DNA of 64,000 nucleotides, from positions 8,556,001-8,620,000 of the forward strand of contig JBHGNT010000013.1 of NCBI GenBank assembly GCA_043228905.1. Direction: 5' to 3'. Positions 8,205 through 61,788 of the stretch are shown piece by piece (within the stretch, counting starts at the first letter, position 1; every line of letters starts with the position of its first letter). The notes under the pieces were generated by a model. The model saw nothing but the letters and a program-made list of their open reading frames with translations. It was not told the DNA's origin and did not search any database. The stretch is from Azolla caroliniana. Its lineage: Eukaryota > Plantae > Polypodiophyta. Position numbers and translations under genes: made by a program.

Positions 8205-8299
8205 CCAAAACTTTATCAGCATAAGATCAACTTGTCCACCGATGCGAAACCTGTGCAACAGCAACGATACCGCATGAACCCGAATTACGCGACTCACGT

Positions 8300-33400: not shown

Positions 33401-34080
33401 CTCAAAAATCCTATACTAACTAATTGTCAGGAATAGTACTAAAACATAGAGAGAATTAGTACTAGAGAAGGGAAGTACTATTAGTACTAAGATGATGGAC
33501 TGCGTAAGACTCACGGTGTCGTGCCTTTCGGCTCCGGATCGTTGCGTGAGTCGGGTGGGAACCGCTGGGGTTTTGGACTAGGAAGAGGAGAGTTTTAAGG
33601 CTAATAAGAATATAAATATGTTGTAAGAAAGAGTTATAGCAAACTCGTGAATCCCACGAGTGTATTGTATTAGATTAATCAATATGAATATAAGAATATA
33701 AACTTCGGTTGAAAGAGAATGATATAGAATTCTCGTGAATCCCACGAGTATAGTTTATTAATTGGTGTTTTTTAGAAACATATCTAGTTTCCAAATATTT
33801 TTCACACACAATTACATTGTGCTCCCCATCCTTATGTAGTGATGAGGAAGTCTTAGTAATCCATGCTTTTTCTCTAACTATAGACCCCATGCTTTTCCTA
33901 TAGATAGACTATATGCTTTATCTAAAGTGATCATGCTTTTTTTCTAACTTGTGCGTTTTTTATCATGCACGCTAGATGTGTATGTGTAGCTTTTTCTTTT
34001 GTTATGCGTTTTTCTAATGTTTATCCTAGCGTGAATTTATCTTTCTATGTGGGACATCTATGCTTTAACACTAATGAAAT

Positions 34081-34150
34081 GCTAGTGTAATGGTAAGACA
34101 TTACATTATTAACATGGAGGTGCAAGGTTCGAATCTTGCCCTATGCATGT
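34081..34150 (+). other. tRNA-like Pol III A/B-box module inside the LTR (second copy ~36872-36941)
   Basis: A box TAGTGTAATGG at 34083-34093; B box GGTTCGAATC at 34126-34135; D-arm GTGT/ACAT and T-arm GCAAG/CTTGC pair; no acceptor stem; followed by T-runs. Confidence 0.7.
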
Positions 34151-34247
34151 TCCATTTATTTTGCTATTTTCTTCTATTTCTTCATTTTTTTATTGAATCT
34201 AATACTATATACGTTTTTCACGTAGTGTACAAAATACACTACGACAC

Positions 34248-36290
34248 TCACCCCCTCCAAACCCGCACATCCTCCGGTATGTGCCGAAGTTGTTGGTGTT
34301 TGTTAGTCTCCTCCGTCCGGTCTCTACCCGATTGGTTTCGTTGCCGGCTCGTAGTACCCTCGACTTCTCTTGTTATGTTGACTTTGTCTCTCCATTTGGA
34401 GCACATCCATTCTTTCCACCCGAACCATTGTCGACATCCGATCCACCATAGTCTTCGTTCGCTTTTTGCATGGCCCGCTTGGTCCTTGTCATCCGCGGTA
34501 GTATCTTTTCTTGCCCTCTTTCTTTTCTTCATCAATCTCGACTTCTTTTCGGATTTTCGGTTTAGTCGGATTAGCTTACTTCCGATTCGGTCTCGTCGGA
34601 TCGTCTTTCGTTTAGTTCGGCTTCCTTTCCGATTTGTATTCGGTCGATCCGGACTCGGTTGATCGGTTTTTACCGATTCAGTGCTCTTTCGGGTCGGTTT
34701 CTTTTCTTTTCTTTTCGTCCGGATTTGCTTTCTTTTCTTCGTTTTCACCTGCCTTGTCCGGTTCGACTTTCGGCACTTCTTTCCGTTGTTCGCTACGTAG
34801 GTCCTCCGATATGTGCTCGTTGTTCGGTCCTCGTGTGGTTGTAATGCATGCTTCTTTTCTCGCCGTAGCGCGTGCTTCTTTATTCGCCATAACACGCGTT
34901 TCTTTATTCGCCGTAGAGCGTGCTCTGTATTACGCGCTTCTCCCGTCGTAGACCCGACCTCCGCATTGTCGCACTTTCTTTTAGATTGGAATTTCGGATG
35001 GATCATTTTCCATCCGAACCGACTTCCAACTTTACCTTCCTCGCCGCCATCTCCCGTCTCTCCGGTCTCACGTTGGTTCTCGGACACAACCGCCGAAGTC
35101 TCTAGATATTGTTGGCATGAATCCTCGGTATTACCTTCTTTCGTAGTTTCACCCTTAGCATTCTTCTCGGCTATCTCTTCATCGTATTCGTCGGCTTCGA
35201 CATTCGTTTTCTCTCCGCCACCTTCCGTCTCTTCGGTCTCACGTTGCCTTTCGATCGCAACCGCCGGAGTCTCTGGAATCAGTGGTGGGGAAGTCTCGAT
35301 ATGGCAATCCGCCATTGATTCGTCCATAGCCACCTCCGATTCGATTTCGTCTTTTGTGGCTACCTCCTTAATCACATCCACTTCACACTCTTTATCTGCA
35401 TCAATTATGCAAACATCTATTATGCTTACCCCTTTTTGACCCGATGTCTCGGGCACTTGTATCCCGAAATTTCCTTCTACACTTGAATTATCGGCCTTAT
35501 CCTTCGCCATCGTTCTTTCACAAGACGAGTGGGTGTCTTGTTCCACTCTTTCTCCCGTGGTACCATCATGTTGTATTTCGGCCTTCATATTGGCTTCATC
35601 GTTTTTCCTCAATCGACCATCCTTCATGGGCCATGTCGTTGTTGACGAGATTCTCAGCTTCCTTTCATCATGTCTTCGGCATACCCTTTCGACTTTGGCC
35701 CAATCCTCGGTAAGGCCGTTCGCACCGTCATCATCTTCGAGTTCGATCCCAATGTCCATCCTTTCTTTCCGATCGATCGATCTTACGAACATTAAGACTT
35801 TATCTTCTCCCACCAATCTTCGTTCCCGCTCCGAGAGTCGAGCAAAACGATGCTCGAACTCTAGGAACGCTTGCGTTGCACTTCGGTGAGTCTTCTCCGA
35901 CGCCACCCATTCGTCGAATTCTCGTCGATCTCGTCCCGTCCATCTCTCATAGTCATATGCCTCCCGTAAAGCTTCTTCAAAGGACTCCCATGTCGAGTTT
36001 TGTTGTTGTATCTTGTGGATTCTCTCTTGTAGTTCGTCCGAGGCCACCCGACTAAAGGATATCACTTGCAATCCTTCCGGTATCCCACATCGTATCATCT
36101 CTGCCTTGTAGTCACGTAGATAGCGTGACACATCCTTTCCATCAAATTGCCCGTTCCGTTGCACGAGCCGTTGTACTACTGTCGTGATCTCCGACATCTC
36201 GCGTTGTTCTTGTAGCATTCTCTCGAACATCATCATCATCATGTTCATCGCCTCTTGTTGATTCTCCATCTCCTTGCCACCCGCCTTCAC
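34248..36290 (-). CDS. Gag-like protein with acidic middle region and very basic tail (up to 680 aa)
   Basis: Uninterrupted ORF. N-terminal FDGKDVSRYLRDYKAEM...TWESFEEALREAY resembles retrotransposon capsid. No protease, RT, RNase H or integrase motifs. Confidence 0.75.
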   Translation of the reverse strand: MKAGGKEMENQQEAMNMMMMMFERMLQEQREMSEITTVVQRLVQRNGQFDGKDVSRYLRDYKAEMIRCGIPEGLQVISFSRVASDELQERIHKIQQQNSTWESFEEALREAYDYERWTGRDRREFDEWVASEKTHRSATQAFLEFEHRFARLSERERRLVGEDKVLMFVRSIDRKERMDIGIELEDDDGANGLTEDWAKVERVCRRHDERKLRISSTTTWPMKDGRLRKNDEANMKAEIQHDGTTGERVEQDTHSSCERTMAKDKADNSSVEGNFGIQVPETSGQKGVSIIDVCIIDADKECEVDVIKEVATKDEIESEVAMDESMADCHIETSPPLIPETPAVAIERQRETEETEGGGEKTNVEADEYDEEIAEKNAKGETTKEGNTEDSCQQYLETSAVVSENQRETGETGDGGEEGKVGSRFGWKMIHPKFQSKRKCDNAEVGSTTGEARNTEHALRRIKKRVLWRIKKHALRREKKHALQPHEDRTTSTYRRTYVANNGKKCRKSNRTRQVKTKKRKQIRTKRKEKKPTRKSTESVKTDQPSPDRPNTNRKGSRTKRKTIRRDRIGSKLIRLNRKSEKKSRLMKKRKRARKDTTADDKDQAGHAKSERRLWWIGCRQWFGWKEWMCSKWRDKVNITREVEGTTSRQRNQSGRDRTEETNKHQQLRHIPEDVRVWRG

Positions 36291-37131
36291 GTCGGGTTCA
36301 CCAACTGTGTCGTGCCTTTCGGCTCCGGATCGTTGCGTGAGTCGGGTGGGAACCGCTGGGGTTTTGGACTAGGAAGAGGAGAGTTTTAAGGCTAATAAGA
36401 ATATAAATATGTTGTAAGAAAGAGTTATAGCAAACTCGTGAATCCCACGAGTGTATTGTATTAGATTAATCAATATGAATATAAGAATATAAACTTCGGT
36501 TGAAAGAGAATGATATAGAATTCTCGTGAATCCCACGAGTATAGTTTATTAATTGGTGTTTTTTAGAAACATATCTAGTTTCCAAATATTTTTCACACAC
36601 AATTACATTGTGCTCCCCATCCTTATGTAGTGATGAGGAAGTCTTAGTAATCCATGCTTTTTCTCTAACTATAGACCCCATGCTTTTCCTATAGATAGAC
36701 TATATGCTTTATCTAAAGTGATCATGCTTTTTTTCTAACTTGTGCGTTTTTTATCATGCACGCTAGATGTGTATGTGTAGCTTTTTCTTTTGTTATGCGT
36801 TTTTCTAATGTTTATCCTAGCGTGAATTTATCTTTCTATGTGGGACATCTATGCTTTAACACTAATGAAATGCTAGTGTAATGGTAAGACATTACATTAT
36901 TAACATGGAGGTGCAAGGTTCGAATCTTGCCCTATGCATGTTCCATTTATTTTGCTATTTTCTTCTATTTCTTCATTTTTTTATTGAATCTAATACTATA
37001 TACGTTTTTCACGTAGTGTACAAAATACACTACGACAACGGGAGAGGAAGAGAGAAAAGGATAAAGAGAGAGATACCGAAGGTGAGAGAGAGAGAGAGAG
37101 AGAGAAGATGATGATCACAGATGATATATTA

Positions 37132-41820: not shown

Positions 41821-42773
41821 ACATGGCATATGTGTATTAATTACCGACGCTTGAATAAAGTGACGATCAAGAATTCATATCCATTACCCCGGGCTGACGA
41901 TCTAATTGACCGTCTCCAAGGAACTCGGTATTTTACGAAACTGGATCTCCGTACTGGGTACCATCAAATTCGTATAAGTGAGGACGATGTTCCTAAAACG
42001 GCATTTCGCACGCGCTATGACCATTATGAGTTTTTGGTTATGCCTTTTGGTTTGACCAATGCTCTGACTACATTTCAACAAGAAATGAATGACATTTTCC
42101 AAGAACAACTTGGAAAATTTGTCATTATTTTCTTGGATGATATTTTAGTTTATAGCCGTACATTACAAGAACATGCTAAACATGTCCGCTTTGTTTTACA
42201 AACATTGCGTGACAAACAGTTTTATGTGAAGCTCTAAAAATGTGAGTTCTTCAAGAAATCAATTACTTATCTTGGACATCTCATAACCGAACAAGGAGTT
42301 GAAATTGATCCTTCTCGCATCGAGAAAATCAAGCTTTGGCCCACTCTTCAGAATATTCGAGAAGTTCATTCATTCCTTGGTTTTGTCGGGTTTTTGCCAA
42401 AATCCCTTTGTAATTACTCCCAATTGACGACGCCGTTTACTGATCTTCTAAAAGGTCAAACGTGTAAGTCTACAAAACCTATTGTTTGGAATGCTACACT
42501 AGACCTCGCCTTTAAGGAACTCAAGGAGCTAGTGTGCAAGGCTCCTTCACTTCTTTTACCCGATCCTTCATAACCTTTTGAGGTTGAAACCGATGCAAGA
42601 GATTATGCTATAGGTGTTGTCTTATATCAAGATGGTAAACCAATAGCATTCAAGAGTAAGAAACTTGATTTTGCTCAATGTCGGTATACCGTTCAAGAAA
42701 AGGAATTATTTGCAGTTATACATGCGCTCAAAACATGGTGCCATTATCTTTATGGAAATCGCTTTTGTGGTAA

Positions 42774-45700
42774 TGTTGTCCGCCGGAATAGTAACCGACG
42801 GACAAGAGCGTAGGAATAAGAAATAATATAAGATCATAACACATGTAATGGTTCACGCAGGAAGCGTGAACGGCTAAATAGTCCCTGGCACGTATATAAA
42901 GGGTAGAAAACCTCTGATAGAGGGGGCGTGTAATTTTGGAATTGTAAAGAAGCGTATCGTAATAGAATTCTATCTTCATTGAAAATCTGTGTATAGCTAC
43001 GACTAATCTATTGTGTGTCTGGAATACCTGAGCGTGTAAGAACGTAAGTGTAACCATTGCTAAGGAGTTGGTTGTAGCCGTCTCCCTTATATGCTGATAG
43101 GTTACAGGGAACATTCCCTTACGCATTACGCCTAGACGCCTATTCGTTGTTCCACAACCACTTGAAGGTCTAGGTCGAAGGACTGATCGCAGACCGTGTT
43201 CCTAATCAGTAACACTTTTGGCACGCTTGGGGGGATTTGTGTCTTCTCACAGACGAGCAACGACGAAGGGATGTTTAGCCGCAGATGCCCCAAAGAACCA
43301 ACACGACAAGACTGGCCAATCACAAGGTCCGTCACACGCCAGGTAGAAGAACGCACACGGCAAAAGCCTCGCTTCAGCAACCTCAATACGACCTGCCGTG
43401 ATTACAAAGGTGATTCTTCGCTCTCCAAATACCTCGACGATATGCGGAGAGTACGCTCACCACAGCCACCCTGTGGTCTTTCCCGACTCGCCGTAGCCCC
43501 CAGCATGGCCTTTGCCTATCCCCGCTTTAATGGCGAAACCGACGCCGCAACCCATATTCGCATGTTCCTTAATGTTTGGAATGCGAACCACATGGCGCAG
43601 AGCCTTTCGGAGGCGGTAGCGCACCAGTCGAAAATGACGGAGTTTGGGTTAACATTGGATGGGCGAGCGGCGTTTTGGCATTCATAGATGGATTTACCAG
43701 CAATCACAACCTTCGATCAGCTGCGGTCCGCTTTCTTGCGGTTCTTCCATTGGAGGATTCCACAACGCGAAATCCTCGGACAGTTCTACACGATTAAGCA
43801 TTTGCTGACCGAGACGATCGCAGACTTCAGCTTATGTTTCCAAAATTTACGGCTGAAACTAGAATGGAGCCCCGCGGAGGACGAGGCTCGAGAAACATTT
43901 CTGGCAGCATTACGCCGACCCATCCGGGCAACGCTAAACACAAATAGCGTGAAAGGGGAAACGACGGATATGGTCATTGAACGAGCGTTACAACTCGAGT
44001 TGGACGAGGAGGAAGAAAGGTTTTCTATGTCCTCCTTACGACAAGCGTTACCTTGTCACGGACACATCAATCGCGGACTAAGACGGAACACGGATGATGA
44101 GGCTACGACGGAGCGATGACGGAATGACACAAGAGCATAAAGATAGAGATGAAGATTAAGGAAAGAAGATGGGCGAAACGAGAATACTAGATTGATATGT
44201 CCATGACTGGCGTTGTTCTCCTTGAATTCCTTCAAGGTGAACTCAACTATGTATACTAAGTGGCATGCATACCTGTTGCACGCATGTGATACAATAGAGC
44301 ATGTAGGCAGTAGGTACGCATGCATGTGCCAAGTGTAAATAATACAAGGGAGAAATTATGCACATGGTGCTAGCTAAAACCTACAATGAGAAAGTATATA
44401 CATGATTATATGCTATATGTGTGGTTAACACATAACACTCGATTATAACATGGTCATGTCAAGAGTTCGAATCTTGACATACCCCAGGACGAGGAACGCC
44501 AGTTTCGTCAGGCAATCCAGTGCACGATTTGCTTGAACTCGGGGCATTCCACAGTGGAGTGCAATATGCGAATCCACTGCCCAATCTGCCACTCGAAGGC
44601 TCACACAGTCGAACAATGCGAATACAATATGTTGAACAGAGCCACTCCTGCAGTCCGCAGCATGGACACCCAACATCCACCACTCCAGACTGAACAAAGG
44701 AGGCAAGAAGACCGACCACGGTATATGGATCGCAACCCACGGGACGACTGGCACCACCGGAATCGCCGAAATCACAATGATTCCGAGGAAGACGAACCAG
44801 AGGACGAGGATTATCGTGGACATCCGAGTTATGCTAAAGGGGGCCGGCGCTATGAGAATCACCGGCCGACAACCAAACGGGGCGGCGTCAATGGTTATCG
44901 TGGTAAGCCGCGGCAATATTGAGATCACCGGAGTTACGACGAAAGCTCGGGAGATGAGCGGCACCAGGAACAACGACGGGACCAATAGCAACCACCGCGT
45001 GCGTTCCGACAAACGAGGCCGAACCGCGAGGAGCAAGTCACACCAAGGGAGCAACACACACCACCAGGAGCCGAGAAGGGTGAATCAAGCATCCATTGTT
45101 TTATTTGTCAGTAGCTCGGACATTATGCCACGCAATTCCCAGCATGCAAGGGCAAGGGGCCTGCCGTCAATACGATTACGACGGAATTGTAGCAAGTCAC
45201 GACACGCCAGCAAACAAGAACGGCTGATTGGGCTGCGCAAGACGAGATACGACGACAAGCCTAGGCATGGGTGGAAAAAGCAAACACGACCAATACAGAG
45301 CGCATGTGGAAGGAGTCCACGAATGCGAGGGAGCAACCAAAGGACGAAGGACCAATCCCGGACCCCATTTGGCAGGCATTAACGGGCTGCGAGATAATGT
45401 TAACCATGGAGAAGCTGCTGCAGCTAGCCAAGCATGCCAAAAGTGTTACCGATTAGGAACACGGTCTGCGGTCAGTCCTTCGACCTAGACCTTCAAGTGG
45501 TTGGAGATGGCCATTAAAAATAAGAATGTCTGGAAGAAGCTGAAAATGACCCAAGCCGAGCTGCAAAAAGCCAACGAACGCATCGCGGAGTTGGAGCCTA
45601 ACGCGACTACGACGCAACACACAACTCCGCCACCAAACCACACCATTGACGCTTTGAAGGAAGAAATTGAGGCTCAGACCGCCATCGCCTCAAAAGCGAA

Positions 45701-47479
45701 AAGGGTTGTGCAGCTAACGGAATCCGAAATTGACCGCCTTCGAGCTGAACTGCGCCAATCCTTAGACAGAGAAAAGGAGATCCGGGCTAACGGCCGGAAG
45801 GCAGTAAAAACCCTTGAAGAGAAACTCGCTACGGAGGTAGCTTACCACATACGAACAAAAGACGAAAACGCCCACTTACGGGATGAGGCGAAGAAATCGG
45901 AGGCGGCAATCACGGGACTCCGGGCCTTATTAGAGAAAAAGAAGACGAGCAGCTGGTGGTCGAACAGGAAAGAAGGCATCAGTTCGAAATCCGCCTAAAC
46001 AATGAAATGGGGAAATTAGAAGAACAACACGCAAAGGAATCCCAGCTATGGGCGGGCCTGAAGTCCACATACGAAGAAGCGGCGGCGGTTAGGCAACAAG
46101 AAATTGCAAACCTCTAGAAGTCGATGGAAGACGCACGCAACCGTTGCCAGGCCATCATAGACAACGTGCATATCCTTCTCCAAACAAATCGGGAGCGGTT
46201 CACAGCGCAATTGAAAACGGCGTTGGACAAAGGATGGATGGCGTGGGCAACCCAAGTAGCGAAATTGCACGTGTATCGTGCGGACTGGGAGAACCAGCAA
46301 AGAGACGGCCGAGGTTTCTATAAACTAAATGAGGAGAGCATTGCGGCCATACGCGAGGACCTAGCGAAAGACTATCGTGCGCTAGAGGACCAACATTCCG
46401 AAGAACTCACGCAACTCTTAGATGATTTTGGTGAAAGCCAGGAGGAGCTATTTCACCAGATCACACAAACCGGCAACACGTGAACATATGAGGAATCCAA
46501 CGCGACGCCAATTCCGGGCACGATCGAAGAAGAGGAACCTCAGGCCAGATCACCAGAAAATACAACGACGGTGAACAACGCGGACCGACGAGCGGATTCC
46601 CCCACAGTACCAGACAACGAAACCGCTGCCGAAGAGGAGCTCCATCCGATGGAGCCCGCGCTATCATCGGACTACACGGAGAACGGTGCGGGCCAAGCGA
46701 AATCGCAACCCCACTCCCCGGAACGTACAAAGACGGTCGATACCACGGAGGAAGTAACGATTGAGACAGAGCCACGACCGATCGCAAGCACGACGACGGC
46801 GGAGCCCAATCCGCTAGCTCAAGAAGAACCCATCGAACCCGGGACCGCCCACACACGACGACTGTGACACCGGGAGAAACCATGCTGACCAAATAGGGGA
46901 GCCGCACCACGATGCACCTACGGGCTCTACGTCGCCTCCGGACATGGACACCGGAGCAGAGCCAAACATCCGGGCCATTTTGGAAGAAGATTAACGAGAT
47001 GGGTCCGACGTGCTAGGGCACTGTCCCACAGGTGTGCCAGGTGTTGTCTGCCGGAATAGTAACCGACGGACAAGAGCGTAGGAATAAGAAATAATATAAG
47101 ATCATAACGCATGTAATGGTTCACGCCGGAAGTGTGAACGGCTAAATAGTCCCTGCGTATATAAGGGGCAGAAAACCTCTAATAGAGGGGGCGTGTAATT
47201 TTGGAATTGTAAAGAAGCGTATCGTAATAGAATTCTATCTTCTTTGAAAATCTTTGTATAGCTATGGCTAATCTACTGTGTGTCTGGAATACCTGAGCGT
47301 ATAAGAACGTAAGTGTAACCATTGCTAAGGAGTCAGTTGTAGCCGTCTCCCTTATACGCTGATAGGTTATAGGGAACATTCCCCTACGCATTATGCATAG
47401 ACGCCTATTCGTTGTTCCACAACCACTTGAAGGTCTAGGTCGAAGGACTGATCGCAGACCGTGTTCCTAATCGGTAACA
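42774..47479 (+). mobile_element. Internally deleted Tat-like gypsy element; LTRs 42774-43214 and 47042-47479; gag plus a 3' coiled-coil extra ORF region, no pol
   Basis: TG...CA ends; TSD GGTAA at 42769-42773 and 47480-47484; PBS TGGCACGCTTGG at 43219; gag with zinc knuckles matches 3250-4500; coiled-coil ORF pieces at 45501-46867. Confidence 0.92.
44054..44479. mobile_element. Solo LTR (426 bp) inserted into the Tat-like gag
   Basis: TGTCA...TGACA ends; TSD TACCT/TACCC; gag reads QALP|QDEERQFRQAIQC across the insertion. Confidence 0.85.
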
Positions 47480-48356
47480 GGTAACTACGGACCACAAGTC
47501 CTTGAAATATTTCTGTGACGAACAAGACTTCAAAGGTCGTAAAGCACGAAGGGCTGATCTCAGCCAGGACTTTGATTTTTCCATACGATATTGTAAGGGT
47601 TCCATAAACACTGTCACTGATGCACTAAATCACATCCGTTAAGTTAACATGCTTAGCTTCACTGAAATAACTTCAGATCTTTATGATCCCCTTTGAGGAA
47701 AGCATACTGATGACAGTTATTTTGCAAAATATTGGGCAAGAGTTGAGTCTAGAATAGACACCACCACATCATCTCGTTGGGCAAAACGAGACGACTAGAA
47801 GTTTGAGTATATGAACACGTATGTATATTAATTTGTATGTGTATATCAAGACGGTTACAACTAATAGGCCGGCAAGGCGAACGCCGACGCCTGTTCACTC
47901 ACACGTAGAAGAGCGAGATGGTGACTCTGCCGGAAGCACACGGGCGTTCCACGAAACAGAGTCAACCTCCCGAAAACCTGCACCCAGCGAATACAGAGAA
48001 AGAAGGAGGAGAAGAGCTCGGTCCCCGTCCGACAACACTTCGTCCTCCACAAAAAAAACGATCCCCTTTTCATTCCTCTCCCTCTCTTTTATAGCCCAAG
48101 GAGGGAGGCCGTTATCATTCGTTACATCATATTAATTCTCTGTCCTTTCGGACATAGATACACCTCGATTCTCTCCCTATTGAATGCGTGCTACCTAGGA
48201 TTTCATCTCAGCCGACTTGTACCTACCTACTTACTATACAACGAAAGTGTGCTCACGTGTAAGGGCCGGTTTACACACGCTAAATTCGGTTTCTGCCTAG
48301 GGACAGTTTTTGTAAACGTAAGTGTTTGCGGAAACGTAAAACAGAGAACAACACAC

Positions 48357-48415
<59 letters not shown>

Positions 48416-51400
48416 GAGAGCAGAACACAATTCCAAAATTATATCAAGACTCTGTACACACACTGTGCTAAGTAGCACTATTTATACAAGTCCTCTTGGG
48501 ACTGACAGAAGTACCATGTACTTCAATGCTCACACGAGCATCTGATACTTACTACGAGACTATAGCTACCTAGTAGTCTATCCTATACTAGGCTTCCAAT
48601 TGGACTTCCGGGTACGGATTGCACCCGGCCTCCACTGCTTGCCGGTTCGGTTGCTTACCGTCATACCGATCCGTTTCGCCCGATCCGTCTCGCTTACCGG
48701 CTCCAGCTTATTCAGCCGATCCGGCTCCGATTGAGCTTGCCGCTCAACACTCCCCCTCAAGCTCAACCTGAGGTGGGGTCGTAGTGTCGACCTCTGTGGC
48801 AGTCAGTTCTTCCAACCGACTTCTCCTGGCGTCACTTTGCCTTGCTTGCGCTCCTCGTCCGGTCCGGTCCCGTTTGCCATGATCCCTTTGGTTCTACGCG
48901 CCTCCACCCTCTCGGTCGGCATGTCTGCTCAATAGGCCCATCTCAGCACTCACGTTGCTGTGACTCCGGCGCTTGCCGATCCGTCGGTTCTCCCACGATG
49001 GCATCGACTTCCGCTGTGTCCGTGTCCCCTTGGCCTTCAGTTGATCCGAGTCATCCGGATCCATCTGTTGATTCGAGTCAGTTGTCTCCGACTCGTTCCA
49101 GCTCTTGTCCGAATCGGTACACTCCGATTCGACTTCCGGCTTCAGGCCTCTCACCACATTGGACCACTTTCGAGTCTTGGCCTTCTCCATGCTTCCCTCG
49201 GCTTCTTCAGCCGGTGAACCGAAATCGAATTCTTCATTCGACTCCTCATCATGGTTAGTACCGTCGTGATGACCTCCGCACAGCATGCACTTCTCTTCCT
49301 GAGTGCACAACTCTTCTTCACAGCCGCTTGCTCCGACTTGTTCGGATGTGTCGACTTCCTTCGTCGACACGACTTCCTTCATCTTCTTGTCTCCTCTTCT
49401 TCCAGCTCTCCTCTTACCGATGGGTTCAACAGTTTTTTGGCCTTTGCCCGTTTCGGTAGAGACTTTGCCCTTGCTTCTCCCCCTCAAGTGTGGCACCTCG
49501 AGATGCTCAATACCAAGCATGTTGGTAAAGTGCTGCAACTTGTCCGATCCGAGTGGCTTGGTGAAGATGTCGGCAACTTGCCGATCCGTATGAACATACC
49601 GTAGGTCAACTTCATCGCCCAGGACCCGCTCACGCACGAAGTGGTAGTGCACCTCGATGTGCTTTGTGCGAGCATGGAACACAGGGTTCCTAGCGAGCTG
49701 CAGGCTGCTCATGGTATCGCAGTAAATCGGGATCGGGGTCGGTACCTCGATCCGCAAGTCTCGCAGCAGTCGCCGAAGCCAGATGGCTTCACAAGTGGCA
49801 ACGGTAGCGGCCCGGTACTCAACCTCAGTGCTTGACAAAGCCACTGTGGGCTACTTCTTACTGCTCCACGCAACGGCCGCGCTACCTATGGAGAACATGT
49901 ATCTGGAAGTGGAGCGACGATCAGACGCATCGCCGGCCCAGTCAGCATCTGTGTAACCGACAAGCTCTTCGGGTATACCTCGCTGGTATAGCAGTCCCCG
50001 GTCCTTAGTGCCGCTGACATATCGTAATATTCGTTGCACGCACTGAAGGTGCTGCATGGTTGGCTTCTGCATGAACGGATAGCTGATGTTGGGTCGGGTG
50101 ATGGTTAAGTAGATCAGGCTTCCGACAACCTGTCGGAACCATTTCTCATTGCAGGCCGGTCCGGAGTTGGGACGGAGCTTCTGGTTCCGGTCCAGGGGTG
50201 TGGAGACAGGTCGGCAATCCGTCATGTCGAACTTATACAGCATATTCAACACGTAATGTCGTTGTGAGAGCAATATGCCGTTGGGGGTCCGGATCACTTC
50301 GATCCCAAGAAAATAATGAAGGTCCCCCAGGTCCTTCATTTCGAATGCGTCCGACAATTGGGACTTGACACGGTTGATTTCGGGAAGACCCGGTCTGGTG
50401 ATGACTAAATCATCCACATACAAGAGTATACATACCGGACCGTCAGAGCCTTGCCGGATGAACAACGAAGAGTCCGACTTAGAGACAGCAAACCCCAACT
50501 TACGCAACCGGTGTGTGATCTTCGCGTTCCAAGCTCGGGGGGCTTGCTTCAAGCCGTAAAGCGACTTCTTTAGTCGGCATACCGCCGACTTGTTCATCTC
50601 CGATTGAAATCCAGGGGGCTGAGTCATAAAGACTTCTTCTTCAAGCTCTCCTTGAAGGAAGGCGTTCTTCACATCCATCTGGTGAAGATGCCACCCCCTT
50701 GCTGTAGCAACCGCCAGTACCACACGAACCGTCGTCATCTTCGCCACAGGAGCGAAGGTCTCGTCGTAGTTGATTCCGTGGGTCTGCGCGTATCCCTTCG
50801 CCACTAACCGGGCTTTGTACCGGTTAACAAAACCGTCGGCGTTGTACTTGACCTTGTACACCCACTTGCATCCGATCGGTTTACACTGACGGGGAGGATC
50901 AACTAGGTCCCAAGTTTCGTTGGCATCGAGGGCCCGCATTTCTTTGTCCATAGCGGCACGCCAATTTGCGTCCTTTGCCGCTTCTGCGTAGCTCTCCGGC
51001 TCACGCACTTCTGTCACCTTAGTCATGTACGCATAATGATGCACCGTGTATTCATTGTACACGTACCGCATGACGGGATCCTTCTGGCGGGTTGATCGGC
51101 GCAACGCACTGTTACCTGATTTGAGGCCCTTCTTGGCCAGTTCGGTCTTCATTGCCGAAGATCCGCCTTTCTCCTTTCTGGAGTCGGATACACACCGATC
51201 CAACTCTTCGTTGCCGGTTTCGAATTCCGGCATCTTCCTCTTCCCCTTCTCTTTGCGCGTGAACCGTTTCATCAGTTCCTTGCGCGGGGAGAGCACGGCA
51301 GAGTCTCCACCACTTGCCGTCTCTTCATCCGACTAGTCCAACCGACTCAGTCGCTCGTTCGGTCCACTCAACCGTAACGATTCCGGACTCTCTTCTTGAG

Positions 51401-53437
51401 TCCCGGCTTCATCATCCTTTGCCAGGGCTGATTCAGGCTCATTGGCTTGATCTTCCGACATTGGGTCGGGATCAGAAGTCGAAGTCGGTACGGAGTACCA
51501 GGATGCCGATTCATCGAACTCGACATCCCGGCTAACTCGAACTTCCTTCGTCCGGGGGTTATAGCACTTATACCCCTTTTGCTCTTGAGCATAGCCGACT
51601 AGGATGCATTTTTCCGATTTTGCATCCAGCTTTCTCCGCTTTTGATTCGGCACATGCACATACACTATGCTGCCGAATATCCGAAGGTGTCTTAAGTTCG
51701 GCTTGCGCCCGAAATACAGCTCATGAGCTGACACCTTGTCACCAATGCGGTTTTGTATGTAGACGGACGTCCGGACCGCCTCCGCCCAGTAGAACCGGGG
51801 CATGCTCGTCTCCTCCAGCATTGCCCTTGCCGCTTCGACGAGTGTCCGGTTCTTCCTTTCGGCCACACTGTTTTGCTCCGGTGTGTATCTGCAGCTGAAC
51901 TCTCGCCGAATTCCCTTCTGTTGCAGATAACTAGTGAATTGGTCGGAAAAATATTCCTTTCCGCCATCCGACCGAAGGCATTTGATCGAGCTTGTTACGG
52001 CTCCAGTTCCGTTCGGTGGGGAATGGAAGCCGGTGTTGCTTCCCTAGTTGGCAGGCTTCACAAATTTCGGCTCTCCGGCCGCTGAACTTCGGCAAACCGA
52101 AAACGACTTGTTTCGTTTGTAGGTCTTGAAGCCTCCGGTAGTTGACGTGGCCTATCCGCTTGTGCCACAGGTCGATGTCCGACTCGACCTTCTGTCGTTT
52201 CGCGAACAGAGCGGTGCCAAGGTCATTGGTGTTGAGGATAAACATCCTCCCGTCTCTGCGCCCTTGCGCAATGACTTCACCCTCATCCTCAATGAAGCAC
52301 CCGAGGTGCGTAAACCGCACCTGCATCCCCTGGTCGACAATCTAATCGACAGACACCAGGTTCTTCGTGATTGTCGGAATGTGTAATACGTTCATCAGCT
52401 TCCCGTTTTGTCTGACGTGACTTAGAGGGACTTCTGCGACGTGCACGATTGGGTGAGGAGTGTCGTCTCCGGTTTCGACTACTCCTGGTTGATCCGGTTT
52501 CTCCAGAAAGGAGAACCACTCTTTGTGGCTCGTCATGTGGTTTGACGCGCCGTAATCAACATACCACACTTCCTCCATTTTGGAAGTGGTCTTCTTCATT
52601 GAGTTTGCCTTGTGATTCATCACCAAGGCTGGCCCCTTACCGGCCTTTCTGGTTCCGGATCCTCCTAATCCGTTTGCGTAGTGCGAGTTTTGCCGGCCAT
52701 CCTTACCGGTCTTGCCGGATCCGGATTTGTCCGAATCGGCACGCTTTCTCCAGCACTCGCTTTCCCTGTGGCCTTTTTTGCCACAGTACCAACATTCCGT
52801 ACTGGATTTGTCTTGCCGGCCTCCGGCACCGCCTTGACTCCCCCTCCTTGTGGAAGTCCCGGAACTGTTGTCGGCACGCTCATAGTGCCTCCATTCCTGC
52901 TCTTGCCGGCCGCCTCCATTGCGTGCCGACCCACCTCTTCCACCACGCCCATGGAGCCGATCCGTTCCCGTGTACAACATTCGGCTATCCGGGGATGCAC
53001 TGGTAGATGCACCGGCGTGGTTCTCCTCTACAAGGAGCATCGACTGTAAGTCGAAGAATGAGGGGGTATTCTCCCTTGTACACACCGCTGTCCGGAAAGC
53101 TCCCAACTTGGACGCCAGGCCTCCGAGACATACCTGGACCATCTCGTCTTCCTCTACGGTAACATTGATAGAGGCGAGCGAGTCGCAGATCTCCTTTATC
53201 CGGCCCATGTAGTCTGCCACGGACATGTTCTTCTATCGAACATTGCTCAACTCCTATCTGAGTTGCAACTTCCGGGCAATGGTGCTTGCGGCGAAAACCT
53301 TTTTCAGGTTCCCCCAAGCATCCTTCGGTGTCTTGGCGTCACGGATGTGGCCGAGCAGCTGATCGCCGACACTGGACGCGAAGCAGTACATCACCCTGCT
53401 TGCCGCCTGTTCCCATACTGGGAAGTCCTTGTGTGCC

Positions 53438-56400
53438 TATTATAGATCTAGGTACTAAAGTAAGCTTAAGATAAGGATAAAGAAATGAAAGATAGAAAGG
53501 AGAAAGAGAAAGAAGGGTGCCGATCCACCCAACCACCCCCGAGCGAAGGGATCGAGACGAACTCGAGCCTCGATCGGCGTCCCATACCACCGCCGTGGCG
53601 TCGAGTCGTACCTGGTGCTGGCGCGCTCGCTACAAGAGTTGACCCACCACACGAGCAGAGTCTCGATGTAGTCAAAAGATGATCAAATGAGGGTAGCTAG
53701 GCCTCTTATTTATAGCGATACCCAAGGCCCCCAGGCAAGTTCACACTTGACCTAATGGGTTGTCTCAATCCCGAGGATTAAAAGTAATCCTCCCCTTCTT
53801 TACACTCTCCTTTAACCCTCATACTTATCCACTCGTATAGAATACTACGGTAAATTCTTACCACGGGATATTATATGGTCATGCCCGTAACATACTCCCC
53901 CTCTTTAAAACATTGCACTCTTGCAATGGAAAGTTAGGGAAGTTAGTTCTAAGAGTATTTTCGCGTTCCCATGTGGCATCTTTTATTGATTTATCCATCC
54001 ATTTTATTTTGAATTCTCGGATTTCTTTAGTACGTAATTTTTTTGTTTTAACATCGAGAATTCTTTCTGGTACATGTGGTTTAGAATATAATTCTTCAAA
54101 AGTAACCAGAGTTTCAGTCGTAACTGTATTGTCGCCAGAACCTAGAAGTTCTTTTAGACGACTCACATGAAAGACGGGATGAATTCCGACACCATCGGGA
54201 AGAGCGAGACGATAGGCTGATGACCCAATGCGTTTGAGGACTGTAAAAGGTCCACAAAACCGTGGGGCTAACTTAGCGCACTTACCCGTAGACAGTGTCT
54301 TAGAATTGTGAGGTACACGTAAAAATACCTTCTGTCCAGGGTTGAATACACGAGGTTGCCTATGATGATCGGCATAAAAACGCGCTCTATCTTGAGCTGT
54401 TTTTATATTATCTCGTGCAATATGCAACATATCTTGCATATCCCGAAGAAAGTTTTGCATACTTCGCAACTCATCATGATGTATAGTAACATCAATTGGG
54501 GCTCGTGGCTGAAAACCATACATCAACATAAAAGGACTATATCCCGTCGACGTATGCTTGGAGCTGTTATAAGCAAACTCCAAAATTGGGAGATAACGTT
54601 CCCATTTTGTTGGTTTTGCACCAACGTATGCTCGAAGCATGTCCTCAATAATTTGATTTACTCGTTCTGTCTGTCCATCGGATTGAGGATGATCCGTGGA
54701 GCTCATGCTCAACGTAGTTTCTAACTTCTTAAAGACTTGTGTCCAGAAGTCACTAGTAAACTTTGGATCTCGATCACTCACGATATCCATCGGTAACCCA
54801 TAAAAACGAAACAATTCATCAACGAATTGGTAAGCCAATTCAGGAGCTGTTACCGTGGTTTTAGTAGCAATAAATCTGGCCATTTTAGTTAGTCAATCAA
54901 CGACAACCCAGATGGCATCATGACCTTTTTGGGTGCGAGGAAGGCTAACAATAAAATCCATGGATATACTTTCCCACTTATTATTGGGAATGTCCAAGGG
55001 ATGTAAAAGTCCTGCGGCTTTAAGTCGCTCGGCTTTGTTAACCTAACATTGGTGACATTTAGTCACATAGCTATGTATGTCAGGACGCATCTTAGGCCAA
55101 TAAAATTGAGTGGAGATGAGAACGAGTGTACGATGTATTCCAGGGTGCCCTGCGGAGGGTGCATCATGGCATTAAAAAAGAATCCTCTTTTTGACCTCGG
55201 GTAAATGTGGAACACAAACCTTCCCATTACGGTAGAGCAAACCGTTAGCAATGTGGAAGTATTCCTTCGAGGATGTGGTGGTGTCTGTTCCAGACTCAAC
55301 TCTTGCCCAGTATTTTGCGAAATAACTGTCATCAGGATACTTTCCTCGAAGGTGATCATAAAGATCTGATGATATTTCAGTGAAGCTAAGCGTGTTAACT
55401 TCACGGATGCGACTTAGTGCATCAACGACAATGTTCATGGAACCTTTACGATATCGTATGGAAAAATCAAAGTCCTGGATGAGATCAGCCCATCGTGCCT
55501 TACGACCTTTCAGGTCTTGTTGGTCACAAAAATATTTCAAGGACTCGTGGTCCGTAGTTACCACAAAGTGATTTCCATAAAGATAATGGCGCCATGTTTT
55601 GAGCGCATGTATAACTGCAAATAATTCCTTTTCTTGAACGGTATACCGACATTGAGCAGAATCAAGTTTCTTACTCTCGAATGCTATTGGTTTACCATCT
55701 TGATACAAGACAACACCTATAGCATAATCGCTTGCATCGGTTTCAACCTCAAAAGGTTTTGAAGGATCAGGTAAAAGAAGTGAAGGAGCCTTGCAAACTA
55801 GGTCCTTGAGTTCCTTAAATGCAAGGTCTAGTGTAGCATTCCACACAATAGGTTTTGTAGACTTACGCGTTTGACCTTTTAAAAGATCAGTAAACGGCGT
55901 CGTCAATTGGGAGTAATTACGAAGAGACTTTCGCAAAAACCCCACAAAACCAAGGAATGATCGAACTTCTCGAATATTCCGAAGAGTGGGCCAAAGCTTG
56001 ATTTTCTCAATGCGAGAAGGATCAATTTCAACTCCTCGTTCGGTTATGAGATGTCCTGGATAAGTAATTGATTTCTTGAAGAACTCACATTTTGAGATCT
56101 TCACATAAAGCTGTTTGTCACGCAATGTTTGTAAAACAAAGCGGACATGTCTAGCATGTTCTTGTAATGTACGGCTATAAACTAAAATATCATCCAGGAA
56201 AATAACGACAAATTTTCCAAGTTGTTCTCGGAAAATGTCATTCATTTCTTGTTGAAAAGTAGCCAGAGCATTGGTCAAACCAAAAGGCATAACCAAAAAC
56301 TCGTAATGGCCATAGCGCGTACGAAATGCCGTTTTAGGAACATCGTCCTCACTTATTCGTATTTGATGGTAGCCAGTACGGAGATCAAGTTTTGTAAAAT

Positions 56401-59400
56401 ACCGAGCTCCCTGGAGACGGTCAATTAGATCGTCAGCCCGGGGCAATGGATACGAATTCTTGATCGTCACTTTATTCAAGCGTCGGTAATTAATACACAT
56501 ACGCCATGTGCCCTCTTTCTTTTTAACCAAGAGAACTGGTGCACCCCATGGAGATTTACTATAACGTATATAACCCATTCGTAAATAGTCCTTGAGTTGC
56601 TTAGATACCTCATCTTCTTCGGATCGACTTAAGCGATACGGAGGTATACTTATTGGTGCAACACCAGGTACAATATCTATACGATGGTCTATATTACGTT
56701 TAGGAGGTAACCCATTAGGTAGTTCACTTGGAAAAACATCATGAAAATCATTTAAGATTTCATCAAGTTGTTGTTGTTCAAAATATGTTAATTGAATCGG
56801 GACATTATCGATATTGTAAACGTGAATGTCCGGATCAAGTACACAATAAAATAACGTAGAACAAGACAACTCGGATATTGATGGACACGAGGAAACAATC
56901 GAGAGGGATTGTTTTTTTACACATTGAATAAAATGCGTACAATCGTTCAGTACAAAAGAAATGGAATGACGAACCCAATCAATAAATAAAGAAGAGTTTT
57001 TATTATAAAACCAGGGATAACCCAATATTACATCGGTGGTACAAAGATTCATTACATGGAAGTCTACTTCCTCTATATAAGTATCAATAGAAATTCCTAA
57101 TGAATGAATCGCCCCGTTGATGTATTGTACTCTTCCATCAGCCAAGTGCACCGTGTAAGTGTGATCACTTACGGTGGGTTGGATTCCCCATATCTGAACC
57201 AAACGATCATTCACAAAATTGTGTGAGCTTCCCGAATAAAAAAAATTTGTACGGGAGATCCATTGATATACCCGTTTGCACGTAGTAAATCATTGGGACC
57301 CAATACATAGTGAGGGAAAGAACATTGACAATTACTTAAATGATGTGTATAGACCTGAAGGACATTAGGAATCTGACCTTTATGGTCTGCAGCTTTAGCT
57401 TTGTTGTCGTGCTCTTTCCGTTGGAGCTTTCGACATTGATCTTTTGTATGACTCTTCTTTTTGCAGAATACACAAAAAGGATGTTGTCGCTTACAATCGC
57501 GATCCAGGAATTCGTTGGGTGTCTTGCGTTTCCCAACAAATTGCAACTGCTTAGTCCCGGGCGCTTCGTTGGGTTTGTTATGGTCCTTCTTCGAAGTGCG
57601 TTGATAGCGAAGAACTATTTCAACGGCCTCTTCGAAGGATTTTGGATCCTTATCGTGCACTATCCAGTGATAGTCCGAATTGGGGATGCCATTGACAAAA
57701 CAAGCTATCAACCAATTGTCCCCTTCTAGACCCGATTTTTGGATTTGGGTTCTAGCATGGTGAACATAGTCTTCTAGCAAGGAAAATTTCCTGCTAGAGA
57801 GGTTCATTAAAGCTTGTGCTACCTCGGTTCGAGAGGGAGGTTGTAGAAATTGGCCCTTAAAAACCGTGACAAAATCTGTCCAGGTATCAGGCAATTTCCC
57901 CATAGTACGGAGGCCACGCCACCAGGCGGCGGCCTTACCCCCGAGTTCTCGGCCGACATATGCAATCTTCGTACTATCTGGCGTGGGATAGAGCTCAAAA
58001 TGAGACTCCCATCGTCCCAGCCATGTGCAGATTGCTTCTTCGGTTCTTTCCTTTTTGTCTCCCGTAAATGGCTTAACGATAAATGATGGTTCACCTTGTC
58101 GCTCATCAGGTCTATTAGTCTCACGTTGTAGACTAATGACACGTGCCTCAAGAGCACTCTGAGATTGCCGAAGTTCGGTCATCTGTTGAGCGGTGAAACT
58201 AAGGTATTGGGTTATTTGTGCCAAATACATCTCAGTGGACATTTGTCCAGGAGGATTCCCTTGAGTTCCTTCCGCTTGAGCGGATGACATCGGGTCGTTA
58301 ATTTGAGCCATTAAAGATTATTTCTGGAAAAGAAATAGGATAAGGTCAGAGATATAGTCATAACATCTTGTCGTGATGTAAACATATCATGGGCGAGCAT
58401 TAATCGATATCATTATCTCACGTCAATACCCCTCTAGACGTATGAGATGAGGTTCAAGATCAGGTTACTATGGTAACACAAAGGTGTTTTAAAAACCATG
58501 GGGGTGACAAATAAATGTCTTTCCTTGATCTCTATATCGATTTTTTCATGGTGGCTCCCCGAGGCTCAACCATGTATGTTCGCGTCATGAATAGTTTATA
58601 CACGAAAAAAAATGTTAACAATAAACTATGTTTCGGTGCCCACATAAGTGGTTTCGGCTCTTTAAGTCCTATTACGAGGACCCCGAGGTGCACTTAGACC
58701 TTAAGTCTAACCATGTGTTATAGTCATATGTATCAAGGATGTTGTATGGTCTTGGTCATATTTGAACTCGAGACCTCGAGAACAAATACATTAAACACTT
58801 GAGCCAACCAAGTAAGTTGCTCTTCTCGAATGCTTAATGTTTGATGCGTATAAGAGATATGCGAGGCAATTGATCATATATGTTTTTTTAAAAGAACATA
58901 TATGTCAAGGGTCCTTATTGCGCCCTCATTTACCAAAACTATGTTGGTACGTTACCTAACCTCAAGTCTCGTAATTACGATGGCATATGCCAAAGTGCAA
59001 CCTAATGGTCAAGCCAAATGAGCCCTCGTTTCGTAGTAGGCTCACGTGGGCCATCACATGGTCACGTCATTACGAATGCCTCTCGTAAGAACGAGCTCAT
59101 GGTGGCATCGTATCCATGTAATGAGGGAGGGATGTTGGATACGTGCGTCATTGGAGCGACCTCACTTGAAGTGGGTCAAGCCCTACGTACTCAACATCAT
59201 TTTGGCTATTCGCGTTTCTTTACGTAACGAAATTGAGGTCATCAACGGGGTTATCAACAATAAAAAAAATGTTGAAAAAGGGATGGTGACAACACCATTC
59301 TCACAAAAATGTGAGGACGGCCACCAACATCCTTTTCCCGACAAGGACAACTTTCGATATAATCACGTAATAACGAATATACACATATGTTTACTTATCA

Positions 59401-60456
59401 CATATATACGATCAAATACGTATATATGTGACCACATATGCCTATATTAAACATATCGTTATAGTAAATAGCCACAAATGATGTGATCGAGATACGTAAT
59501 CGAGGTATATACCTCTACGCACACGAAACATCCACAAATAAGAGATCATCGTAATACGCAATGGAGGTATTGACCTCTTACGCATACGAGACCAAACACA
59601 TATCGTTTACAACAAATCAAGGTATTAAACTCATACGCAAACGTAACATATGTTCGTGAACACAATACATAATTGAGGTATTAACCTCGTACGCATACAA
59701 CACTCATCACATATTATTAATATGTCAAACGAGGTATTGACCTCGTGCACATATGTAAACGTTTTAGATAATCAATTAAAGACCACTACAACATCATTGA
59801 CTTAATGAAAAAAATTACATATAAACTAAACACATGATTAGATGGGAGAAGAGAGAATAGAAAGAAAAATTATGGAAAGAGTTACCGAAGTTCTTTGTTG
59901 ATCGTTGTCTGGATCAAGGCCAACCACACAACGATCGATCAACATCAATCAAAAGACAAATGAAAAACAAAGAAACATTAGTACAAAAATCTGATACCAA
60001 ATATTATAGATCTAGGTACTAAAGTAAGCTTAAGATAAGGATAAAGAAATGAAAGATAGAAAGGAGAAAGAGAAAGAAGGGTGCCGATCCACCCGACCAC
60101 CCCCGAGCGAAGGGATCGAGACGGACTCGAGCCTCGATCGGCGTCCCATACCACCGCCGTGGCGTCGAGTCATACCTGGTGCTGGCGCGCTCGCTACAAG
60201 AGTTGACCCACCACACGAGCAGAGTCTCGATGTAGTCAAAAGATGATCAAATGAGGGTAGCTAGGCCTCTTATTTATAGCGATACCCAAGGCCCCCAGGC
60301 AAGTTCACACTTGACCTAATGGGTTGTCTCAATCCCGAGGATTAAAAGTAATCCTCCCCTTCTTTACACTCTCATTTAACCCTCATACTTATCCACGTGT
60401 ATAGAATACTACGGTAAATTCTTACCACGGGATATTATATGGTCATGCCCGTAACA
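53438..60456 (-). mobile_element. Full-length Ty3/gypsy chromovirus; 455-bp LTRs at 53438-53892 and 60002-60456; gag 57211-58311, pol to 53879, disabled
   Basis: TSD GTGCC; PBS TGGTATCAGA at 59990-59999; PPT AAAGAGGGGGAG; RT FLDD, RNase H ETDASD, integrase SDRDPKF, GPF and chromodomain-like C-terminus. A frameshift removes the protease catalytic Asp (VQIFF[D]SGSSHNF); stops at ~55172, ~55044 and ~54891; about 6 LTR mismatches. Confidence 0.95.
59502..59756. repeat. Five palindromic ~25-bp repeats separated by dissimilar spacers in the chromovirus 5' leader
   Basis: GAGGTATTRACCTCNTACGCA at 59502, 59564, 59619, 59675 and 59731. Confidence 0.8.
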
Positions 60457-60741
60457 GTGCCGAGTCGGGCGCCGCATCATTCGCTCTTTCGACATAACTC
60501 CAGTACCCGTGTCCAAGCAGGTACTGGTGCATCTTGTAAGACTAGGATGCGTAGTTGCTCCTGTCGAGCTTCTCCACCGGGAGCGACGTAGCCATGCCTC
60601 TATCCATGTCTTCTACTGTGTCTGTTTTCGACCTGTTAGGGTTTTCTTCTCAAGATTAAATGTCTGCAACAGAGGTTCTCAACCCTTGCGCTCTGATACC
60701 ATGTAAACGTAAGTGTTTGCGGAAGCGTAAAACAGAGAACA

Positions 60742-60790
<49 letters not shown>

Positions 60791-61788
60791 GAGAGCAGAA
60801 CACAATTCCAAAATTATATCAAGACTCTGTACACACACTGTGCTAAGTAGCACTATTTATACAAGTCCTCTTGGGACTGACAGAAGTACCATGTACTTCA
60901 ATGCTCACATGAGCATCTGATACTTACTACGAGACTATAGCTACCTAGTAGTCTATCCTATACTAGGCTTCCGATTGGACTTCCGGTTAGGGATTGCACC
61001 CGGCCTCCACTGCTTGCCGGTTCGGTTGCTTACCGTCATACCGATCCGTTTCCCGATCCGTCTCGCTTACCGGCTCCGGCTTATTCAGCCGATCCGGCTC
61101 CGGTTGAGCTTGCCGCTCAACAGTTTTCTTCACAACATCCGCCCCCACCTAACCACGCATCCACTGGTATGCGCCAAAATTGGGCTTTTGCCAGAGAAAA
61201 CCAGTCCATGCTTTACTCCTCGCCTTTTGGGTCGTCATCCGTCGTCGCCGTCCATTTTGCTTTCCAGATCCGACTCGCACTCGTGTCGTTTCTTAAATGC
61301 TTTGACCCTTTTCCCCGCTACTGGTATTGCCATCCTCATATCGTCGAGCTCCGCAAGGTGGTAGGTCCCGTTGTTGTTGGCGCCTGCCACCGCGTAAGGC
61401 CCGGACCACCTCCTTGCAAACTTTCGCATCGCCCTGTGTTGGTTTTGAGGCTGCTGTCATACACTAGGACCCAGTCGCCTTCCTCGATTTTCTTCGGTCG
61501 CAGTTGGTGAGTCCGGTCAAAACGCCCTTTGTTCTTCAACCTTGCCAACTGAAGCTTCTCCGCGGCTCTTTCCACGTCCTCCGGCCTCCGCTCGAGCTGT
61601 CGAATCCGTGCCGCCAGCAGCTCCTCTCGGCTCATCTCATCTCTCTAGTCCACCGTGGCCCATGAGGAGATCGTCCGTTCCGTCGGCATGATCGGCTTCT
61701 GTCCGTACATAAGCTCTGCCGGCATGAACCCGGTTACCGAATTGTGCGTAGTTCGGTCCGCCCATAAGGCATAAGGTAGCAGTCGTGG

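Follow-up and report, generated by a model that had tools for sequence, protein, structure and literature searches.

The window analyzed here is a 64,000-nucleotide stretch of Azolla caroliniana DNA (contig JBHGNT010000013.1) in which an LTR retroelement occupies positions 42774–47479 (Table 1). The earlier note on this DNA had described the element as bounded by a GGTAA duplication, with a PBS after the 5′ LTR and gag on the plus strand. The duplication is present on both sides, and an uninterrupted empty site homologous to the insertion point lies at about 55560 in the window. The PBS is also where the note had placed it. Gag does run on the plus strand, as judged by tblastn matches to a second element in the window (element 2) and to a related polyprotein, P0025, with the Pfam Retrotrans_gag domain falling below its cut-off. 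The copy itself is in worse condition than had been described: gag is broken by stops and a solo LTR and there is no pol, so this is a defective copy. Its two LTRs are identical at 417 of 441 alignment columns (95%). The remnant of the 3′ extra ORF has fifteen homologs and is 47–48% identical to the intact frame of a metagenome locus, L074. Other copies of this many-copy family stay in the gag-pol frame at 45427, as seen from loose contig ends in three of four public sequencing runs (16–22 contigs each; comparison region 45300–47600). The inverted U5 and PBS segment joins the truncated gag to the extra ORF; in size and polarity it resembles a stray product akin to minus-strand strong-stop DNA.

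Table 1. Coordinates of the element at 42774–47479, of its junction motif, and of related features. Positions are those of the window unless a locus is named.
Feature	Position	Strand	Remarks
Left target-site duplication GGTAA, 5 bp	42769-42773	+	Right copy 47480-47484; single copy at homologous empty site
5′ LTR, 441 bp, TGTT...AACA	42774-43214	+	TATA-like box at +119
5′ PBS, predicted tRNA-Arg-type 3′ end	43219-43230	+	4 nt past 5′ LTR
gag region	43256-45427	+	Frame broken by stops and solo-LTR insertion; ends ahead of protease
Solo LTR inserted within gag	44054-44479		Basis: insertion ends
Inverted U5 end and PBS, 76 nt	45428-45503	-	In place of absent pol; 96% identical to 43155-43230
C-terminal half of the family's ~900-aa 3′ extra ORF	45504-46867	+	Coiled-coil-like; frameshifted
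tRNA-like junction motif	46999-47039	+	Ahead of 3′ LTR
Box corresponding to tRNA-Arg nt 49-58 (T-stem 5′ strand and T-loop)	46999-47008	+	8/10 identical; alignment to bacterial stand-in L123
14-nt insert between tRNA nt 58 and 59	47009-47022	.	4-bp hairpin, GTGC-loop-GCAC
17 nt corresponding to tRNA nt 59-76 minus one C	47023-47039	+	CCA end; predicted PBS on minus strand
Spacer to LTR, 2 nt	47040-47041	+
3′ LTR, 438 bp	47042-47479	+
Second motif copy, in element B	6054-6093	+	Ahead of 3′ LTR (6099-6587)
Element 2, diverged relative	2802-8293	+	LTR 2802-3232, PBS at 3237, gag-protease-RT start; 3′ end absent from window
Intact ~900-aa extra ORF, L074	827-3613	-
Intact ~900-aa extra ORF, L065	1742-4426	-
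Intact ~900-aa extra ORF, L019	30-2774

The element lies inside the RT-RH region of a gypsy element, within a deeply nested tract (41820–64000). Further along, a Met-PBS element (48311–61122) contains another gypsy element (53438–60456) and is itself inserted in the LTR of one more non-chromovirus-like element, whose G-rich PPT lies near 61140. On the minus strand, a 3.5-kb LTR element (33513–37037) with 734-bp LTRs that are 99.9% identical represents a very recent insertion and has a normal PPT. Element B (4509–6587), which carries the second motif copy, is non-autonomous, has the duplication GAAAC, and has lost most of its 5′ LTR. Its polarity was set by relatives in locus L047 and by LTR homology, and on these grounds we rejected the reading of its motif as an ordinary minus-strand PBS. 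A 5–6 bp hairpin follows the gag-linked 5′ PBS at four sites (43231–43260, 3251–3272, L074, and L018).

The earlier note had reported that no purine tract precedes the 3′ LTR, and this is borne out. The final 20 nt contain 10 purines, with a longest run of 3, compared with 14–15 purines and runs of 8–12 at the same position in three other LTR elements of the window. A fourth has a G-rich tract at the PPT position by eye. The sequence found instead had been likened, over its last 17 nt, to the 3′ end of a tRNA-Arg. That likeness stands, including the CCA, and its extent had to be corrected: it reaches back to 46999 and covers tRNA nt 49–76, with a hairpin inserted after nt 58. Motif positions are given in standard tRNA numbering. 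The reference is a bacterial stand-in, L123, which is an Arg(UCU) tRNA and may differ from the host's own tRNA-Arg. Stand-ins were taken from a scan of genome contigs that yielded twenty-two bacterial stretches (twenty tRNA-Arg, one Asp, one uncalled) and serve for geometry only. One of the scanned contigs (L128, 300–374, minus strand) carries, beside an uncalled tRNA, a tRNA from Saccharibacteria whose body is Arg-like but which ARAGORN assigns as Asp(atc). Within the excerpt consulted, human tRNA-Arg(UCU) has the same T-arm as the motif, a likeness limited to the T-arm (PMC13267816). The T at 47033 is a variant private to this copy; about 94% of the depth in public run X3 has C, like the tRNA. 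The window contains the core pattern at two places (47018–47039 and 6072–6093), and none of 100 shuffles gave any occurrence. There is no tRNA gene in the 64-kb window, an Rfam search of 46850–47100 gave no match, and the only two tRNA calls in the 110 plant loci described below are both Lys-like.

The motif and adjoining LTR start (region 46980–47095) were found in all four public runs, which represent four organisms and two studies, with no listed indel. For organism C, five matching contigs cover 47017–47052 only, that is, the motif and the LTR tip, so the motif outlasts its surroundings. Contigs with the LTR start but without the motif numbered twenty-one in X3 and fourteen in X5, with upstream agreement of 0.37 and 0.39, respectively. 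Their upstream letters behave as random flanks and have no common purine tract.

A pattern scan of metagenome contigs returned 114 stretches, which gave 110 loci and 116 copies; dropping L094 as a chance match left 115. The loci come from a single series of assemblies in 109 of 110 cases, and some genomic sites are included more than once. The search pattern fixed the motif core plus two purines and left the missing C optional. Retrieval relied on the motif, which kept any copies with a PPT out of this sample. The ninety copies with 70 nt on both sides fall into twenty-four single-linkage groups. Two parts of the motif outside the search pattern recur across these groups: the T-arm box matches at 7 or more of 10 positions in 21/24 groups (vs 107/4492 random places), and the GTGC hairpin arm is perfect in 16/24 (vs 39/4492) and matches at three or more of four positions in all twenty-four. 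The insert is 13–15 nt long across copies. The LTR starts 2 nt after the motif in 81 of 116 copies, 4–5 nt after it in twenty-one, and 8 nt after it in one; the start was unrecognised in ten copies and cut off in three. Only two further convincing variants came out of a profile search of the loci, and the substitutions that the motif tolerates, its core being fixed by the pattern, are transitions at G and T. The full 18-nt form with the extra C is present only in L009 and in the chance match L094. The L009 copy (152–174, minus strand) has two differences from its own family, both towards the stand-in tRNA, and its family's LTR start is absent after the motif. It may record a copied tRNA primer, or it may be a chimera (coverage 2.6). 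Four pattern matches in viral contigs, without box or hairpin, were taken as chance.

Could the motif be a by-product of rearrangement, in which defective copies picked up an inverted PBS when the template switched? The element in the window is defective and does contain a real inverted U5 and PBS (45428–45503), and the sample was gathered by motif. However, among 103 family LTR starts from the loci and the window, a motif-biased sample, ninety-seven follow the exact motif, two a variant, one an inverted PBS, and three flanking DNA. None of the 103, the loci having been fetched by motif, comes after a purine run longer than 5. The earlier note had itself raised the concern that the motif might be restricted to rearranged copies, with an ordinary PPT in intact members that carry pol. 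The motif is not so restricted, being found in all four runs (four organisms) and in 115 metagenome copies (twenty-four groups), and L074, which has an integrase C-terminus and an intact frame, has the motif and no PPT. The note's other concern, that the motif might match no host tRNA and lack conservation, is likewise not borne out, the motif being conserved in the same samples. L074 and L065 agree in their motifs although their extra ORFs share only 25–28% identity. An origin by rearrangement is thus largely refuted and has next to no chance of being correct; the motif is confirmed as a feature of the lineage.

Coding sequences around the motif give its polarity. An extra-ORF homolog ends within 1.5 kb upstream of the motif on the same strand in 21 of the 110 loci, and in none of them did the internal side of the motif have gag on the opposite strand. 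The opposite-strand exceptions are one RT and one ORF fragment, both at contig edges at least 1.8 kb away (L049, L066). Fifteen LTRs in fourteen loci are bracketed in the order motif, LTR, PBS. The contig of L074 reads integrase end, intact 929-codon frame, motif, LTR, PBS, gag. Its integrase C-terminus shares 14 of 18 residues with P0025 (E = 0.001), and this single locus supplies the linkage of pol to the motif, over those 18 residues. The extra ORF is open for about 900 codons in L074, L065, and L019. Its N-terminal domain is conserved and its C-terminal half is coiled-coil-like. No Pfam family matched at cut-off, and viral contigs contained no homologs. For the N-terminal part, the Atlas leads were all below 0.9; plant mobile domain clusters gave a weak likeness (0.80). 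Many other loci are non-autonomous, and in seventeen of them PBS and motif surround 0.6–3.5 kb with no recognised genes.

Tandem arrays with one common LTR are frequent in the lineage, among autonomous and non-autonomous elements alike (L003, L005, L013, L018, L020, L026, L031, L035, L039, L045, L062, L071, L074, L076). Two odd copies have rearranged ends. In L037 (about 2660–2740), the LTR start of one non-autonomous family is inverted ahead of the 5′ PBS, as if the LTR had flipped. In L030 (451–1080), a 630-bp segment has a long motif at either end; the two are oppositely oriented and face different LTR ends.

With the polarity known, one may ask whether the motif simply serves an antisense genomic RNA as its ordinary PBS, with sense and antisense RNAs packaged together, each primed by tRNA, and the two cDNAs completing each other. 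Such a scheme would account for all of the tRNA complementarity and would avoid a tRNA:DNA hybrid, and the ends look interchangeable in L030 and L037. It requires a full-length antisense transcript, however, and TATA-like boxes are found in sense orientation in 18/18 LTRs but in antisense orientation in 11/18, at scattered places. We regard antisense genomic RNA as a decidedly improbable explanation.

The lineage was placed using P0025, a 1901-aa relative with the order GAG-PR-RT-RH-INT and, by Pfam, neither aRH nor chromodomain; a second polyprotein, P0027, is likewise non-chromovirus without chromodomain or aRH. The P0025 protease region is 60% identical to that of element 2. P0025 carries the four acidic RNase H motifs, which are catalytic, and its RNase H appears from the sequence to be intact. 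Among named RT-RH sequences, those of Riccia, Marchantia, and Adiantum come nearest (48–52%). In an RT-RH tree, the family and the Riccia rows fall in a seed-free-plant group (support 95) that is sister to non-chromovirus rows from angiosperms and pine (99); this was a quick tree of forty-nine chosen rows with SH-aLRT support only and no REXdb references, from which P0133 was dropped as too short. Two LTRs, a target duplication, and a 5′ PBS, together with the PR-RT-RH-INT order in P0025 (the copy itself has no pol), agree with Ty3/gypsy. The PPT that typically precedes the 3′ LTR in that group, though not part of its definition, is absent.

As far as the consulted portion of the REXdb paper describes them (PMC6317226), Athila and the OTA non-chromovirus Ty3-gypsy elements resemble the family in their GAG-PR-RT-RH-INT order, the lack of chromodomain and aRH, the 5-bp duplication, the 3′ extra ORF, and the full-tRNA PBS. 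The family differs from Athila as described there in lacking a PPT, in having a putative inverted second PBS, and in having an extra ORF without a Pfam family at cut-off. The table in that portion gives Asp, Asn, or Ala as the PBS type of Athila and Arg for TatIII, Ogre, and Retand, which have aRH (PMC6317226). The PBS here is Arg-type by the bacterial stand-in tRNAs and so not one of those dominant in Athila, and the archaeal RNase H of Tat/Ogre/Retand is absent. Nor does the family share the 4-bp duplication, Trp or Ala PBS, and lack of an extra ORF of Phygy and Selgy, or the tRNA-derived promoter inside the LTR and the PPT of Helenus (TRIMp3): here the motif is outside the LTR and there is no PPT. 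We call the family Athila-like from its sequence and do not file it as Athila, because its PBS type differs from the REXdb table and the tree lacks a reference set.

PPT priming is described as the general plus-strand route in retroviruses and LTR retrotransposons (PMC3185511, in the section consulted). Within the sections of the cited papers that we drew on, several systems share one property with the junction motif. The bipartite PBSs of Ty1 and Ty3 are also split sites for acceptor stem and T arm, consisting in Ty1 of two segments around a small internal loop (PMC5371799). Those sites are on genomic RNA and prime the minus strand, and the elements use a PPT, whereas the split site here is complementary to tRNA on the minus strand only; according to the same text, the tRNA does not serve to rewrite the Ty1/Ty3 PBS, and the primer of the plus strand is used again (PMC5371799). 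The self-priming elements Tf1, Tcn1, and TAR resemble the family in having one standard primer replaced (PMC6317226). In their case it is the minus-strand tRNA and the PPT is kept (SM-Tcn1 has one; PMC2864245), while here it is the PPT. Helenus TRIMs likewise have tRNA-derived sequence in non-autonomous LTR elements; it is inside the LTR, is read as a Pol III promoter, is accompanied by PBS and PPT, and is given no priming role by the author in the part consulted (PMC10886601). In VL30, also an LTR element, a vesicle-enrichment motif repeats this T-arm sequence on the sense strand, but as described in the section used it has no CCA end, lies away from the LTR junction, and coexists with an intact PPT (PMC8615591). 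Finally, HIV-1 3′PPT mutants are described in the excerpt used as falling back on the central PPT and on 1-LTR circles, not on tRNA (PMC13332604); the elements here, unlike these, integrate with target duplications.

How, then, might the plus strand be primed? It must begin 2–5 nt ahead of the LTR, which is where the CCA of the motif ends. The earlier note had offered two options. The first, priming by a second tRNA-Arg, is the better fit to the anatomy added here and is in our judgment probably right. Given the position, conservation, and polarity of the motif, the missing purine tract, and the identity to tRNA nt 49–76 with a hairpin after nt 58, we think it fairly likely that a second tRNA-Arg anneals to the minus-strand cDNA through the split site and primes the plus strand. 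RNase H would clear the RNA and expose the site on minus-strand DNA. Host tRNA-Arg would then pair through nt 59–76, with one C bulged, and through nt 49–58, and the hairpin would loop out at nt 58. In tRNA, nt 58 is normally m1A, which is unable to pair, and a split-site junction at nt 58 fits this. The CCA end would start the plus strand 2–5 nt ahead of the LTR, with RT extending it before RNase H cuts; RNase H would later remove the tRNA and integrase would trim the short spacer. Both ends of the linear DNA would thus arise by mirror-image steps, and the DNA site could perhaps be reloaded with fresh tRNA.

Co-folding of the site with the last 28 nt of the stand-in tRNA gave one three-way junction in 14/14 contexts (thirteen distinct). 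In this junction, 16–17 bp form with a single bulged base in the tRNA, the hairpin loops out, and the freed T-arm strand pairs with the box. The energies were those for RNA-RNA and DNA-DNA pairs rather than for hybrids, the tRNA was a bacterial stand-in, and the outcome follows partly from the sequence identity. Positions 9–10 of the PBS are pyrimidines in 32/32 sites, as two tRNA Gs would permit. In the fifteen bracketed LTRs, both spacers start with C beside AACA, but the two stand one reading frame of symmetry apart. By eye, the 5′ PBS also seemed to be followed by a T-arm box; in none of twenty-four sites, however, did this box score above shuffles (best 16/200), a result that counts against tRNA priming. 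The main difficulty for tRNA priming is that a tRNA:DNA hybrid is a substrate for RNase H, which is apparently intact in this family, and could be cut in the tRNA before extension. The bulge and the junction may, speculatively, protect it.

A rival reading has the primer made in cis. The motif in the element's own RNA could survive RNase H as a structured tRNA mimic, be cut after the CCA, and act as a non-purine PPT. Its position and spacer are the same as those of a PPT, no new partner is required, some contexts give T-arm-like folds, and in mouse VL30 RNA a motif resembling a T-arm, in sense orientation, plays a part, according to the portion of the study used (PMC8615591). The folds of the RNA strand argue otherwise: taken alone, it adopts several unrelated structures across contexts, with no common fold and a 3′-end accessibility of 0.10–0.80 over the fourteen contexts. 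Together with an insert that splits the T-loop a mimic should retain, this counts against a conserved cis mimic. Moreover, L019 and L065, which have high coverage and intact ORFs, have A at nt 51, which is a mismatch in a cis T-stem and a wobble pair in trans, and no 5′ strand of an acceptor stem was seen upstream of the motif. A cis mimic seems unlikely to us.

The second option of the earlier note was that the motif pairs with the element's own PBS, for minus-strand self-priming or mainly for RNA circularisation, with the plus strand primed in some other way. Motif and PBS are complementary over 10–11 bp, and at two variable positions they are exact complements in 13/17 elements, a pattern that counts somewhat against tRNA priming because it also fits cis pairing. 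The covariation is weak either way: the seventeen elements belong to few families, and two tRNA isodecoders would also produce it. In 2/17 elements GA faces CT, a combination that mismatches in cis yet pairs with tRNA Gs, and mismatches are present in 5/15 shared-LTR pairs and in L074. Gag-linked PBSs match the tRNA end further than they match the motif (13–14 vs 11 nt), including a C that the motif lacks; the cut required for self-priming would sever U3-R from the template; and the box, the hairpin, and the missing PPT would be left unexplained. We consider motif–PBS pairing very improbable as the main explanation. Self-priming is disfavored by the 13–14 nt pairing with the true tRNA end, while end-to-end pairing may hold as a side role in view of the 13/17 elements, or two isodecoders may be in use.

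Returning to priming by a second tRNA-Arg, the reading that we prefer, this would be an old LTR lineage of seed-free plants, with autonomous and non-autonomous members and no PPT, that probably uses one and the same tRNA-Arg to prime both strands; the second priming would take place on DNA, at a split site in which the hairpin skips nt 58. It would then be the first LTR retroelement with a tRNA-primed plus strand and mirror-symmetric ends. Our literature search found no description of an inverted PBS in place of a PPT; subscription journals, Repbase, and the REXdb per-element table and sequences were outside its scope and may hold such elements. The architecture is thus apparently undescribed. 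The known variety in priming concerns the minus strand, and here it is the plus-strand primer that would differ. If the proposal is true, a tRNA-primed plus strand would be a new step for LTR retroelements, and a gypsy RT would be able to use tRNA on a DNA template despite its own RNase H. A natural and successful lineage without a PPT would offer a direct way to test how RT distinguishes a primer from an RNase H substrate, and it would bear on the origin of the PPT. Annotation tools that depend on a PPT would miss or mis-orient such elements, and tRNA 3′ fragments could target both of their strands.
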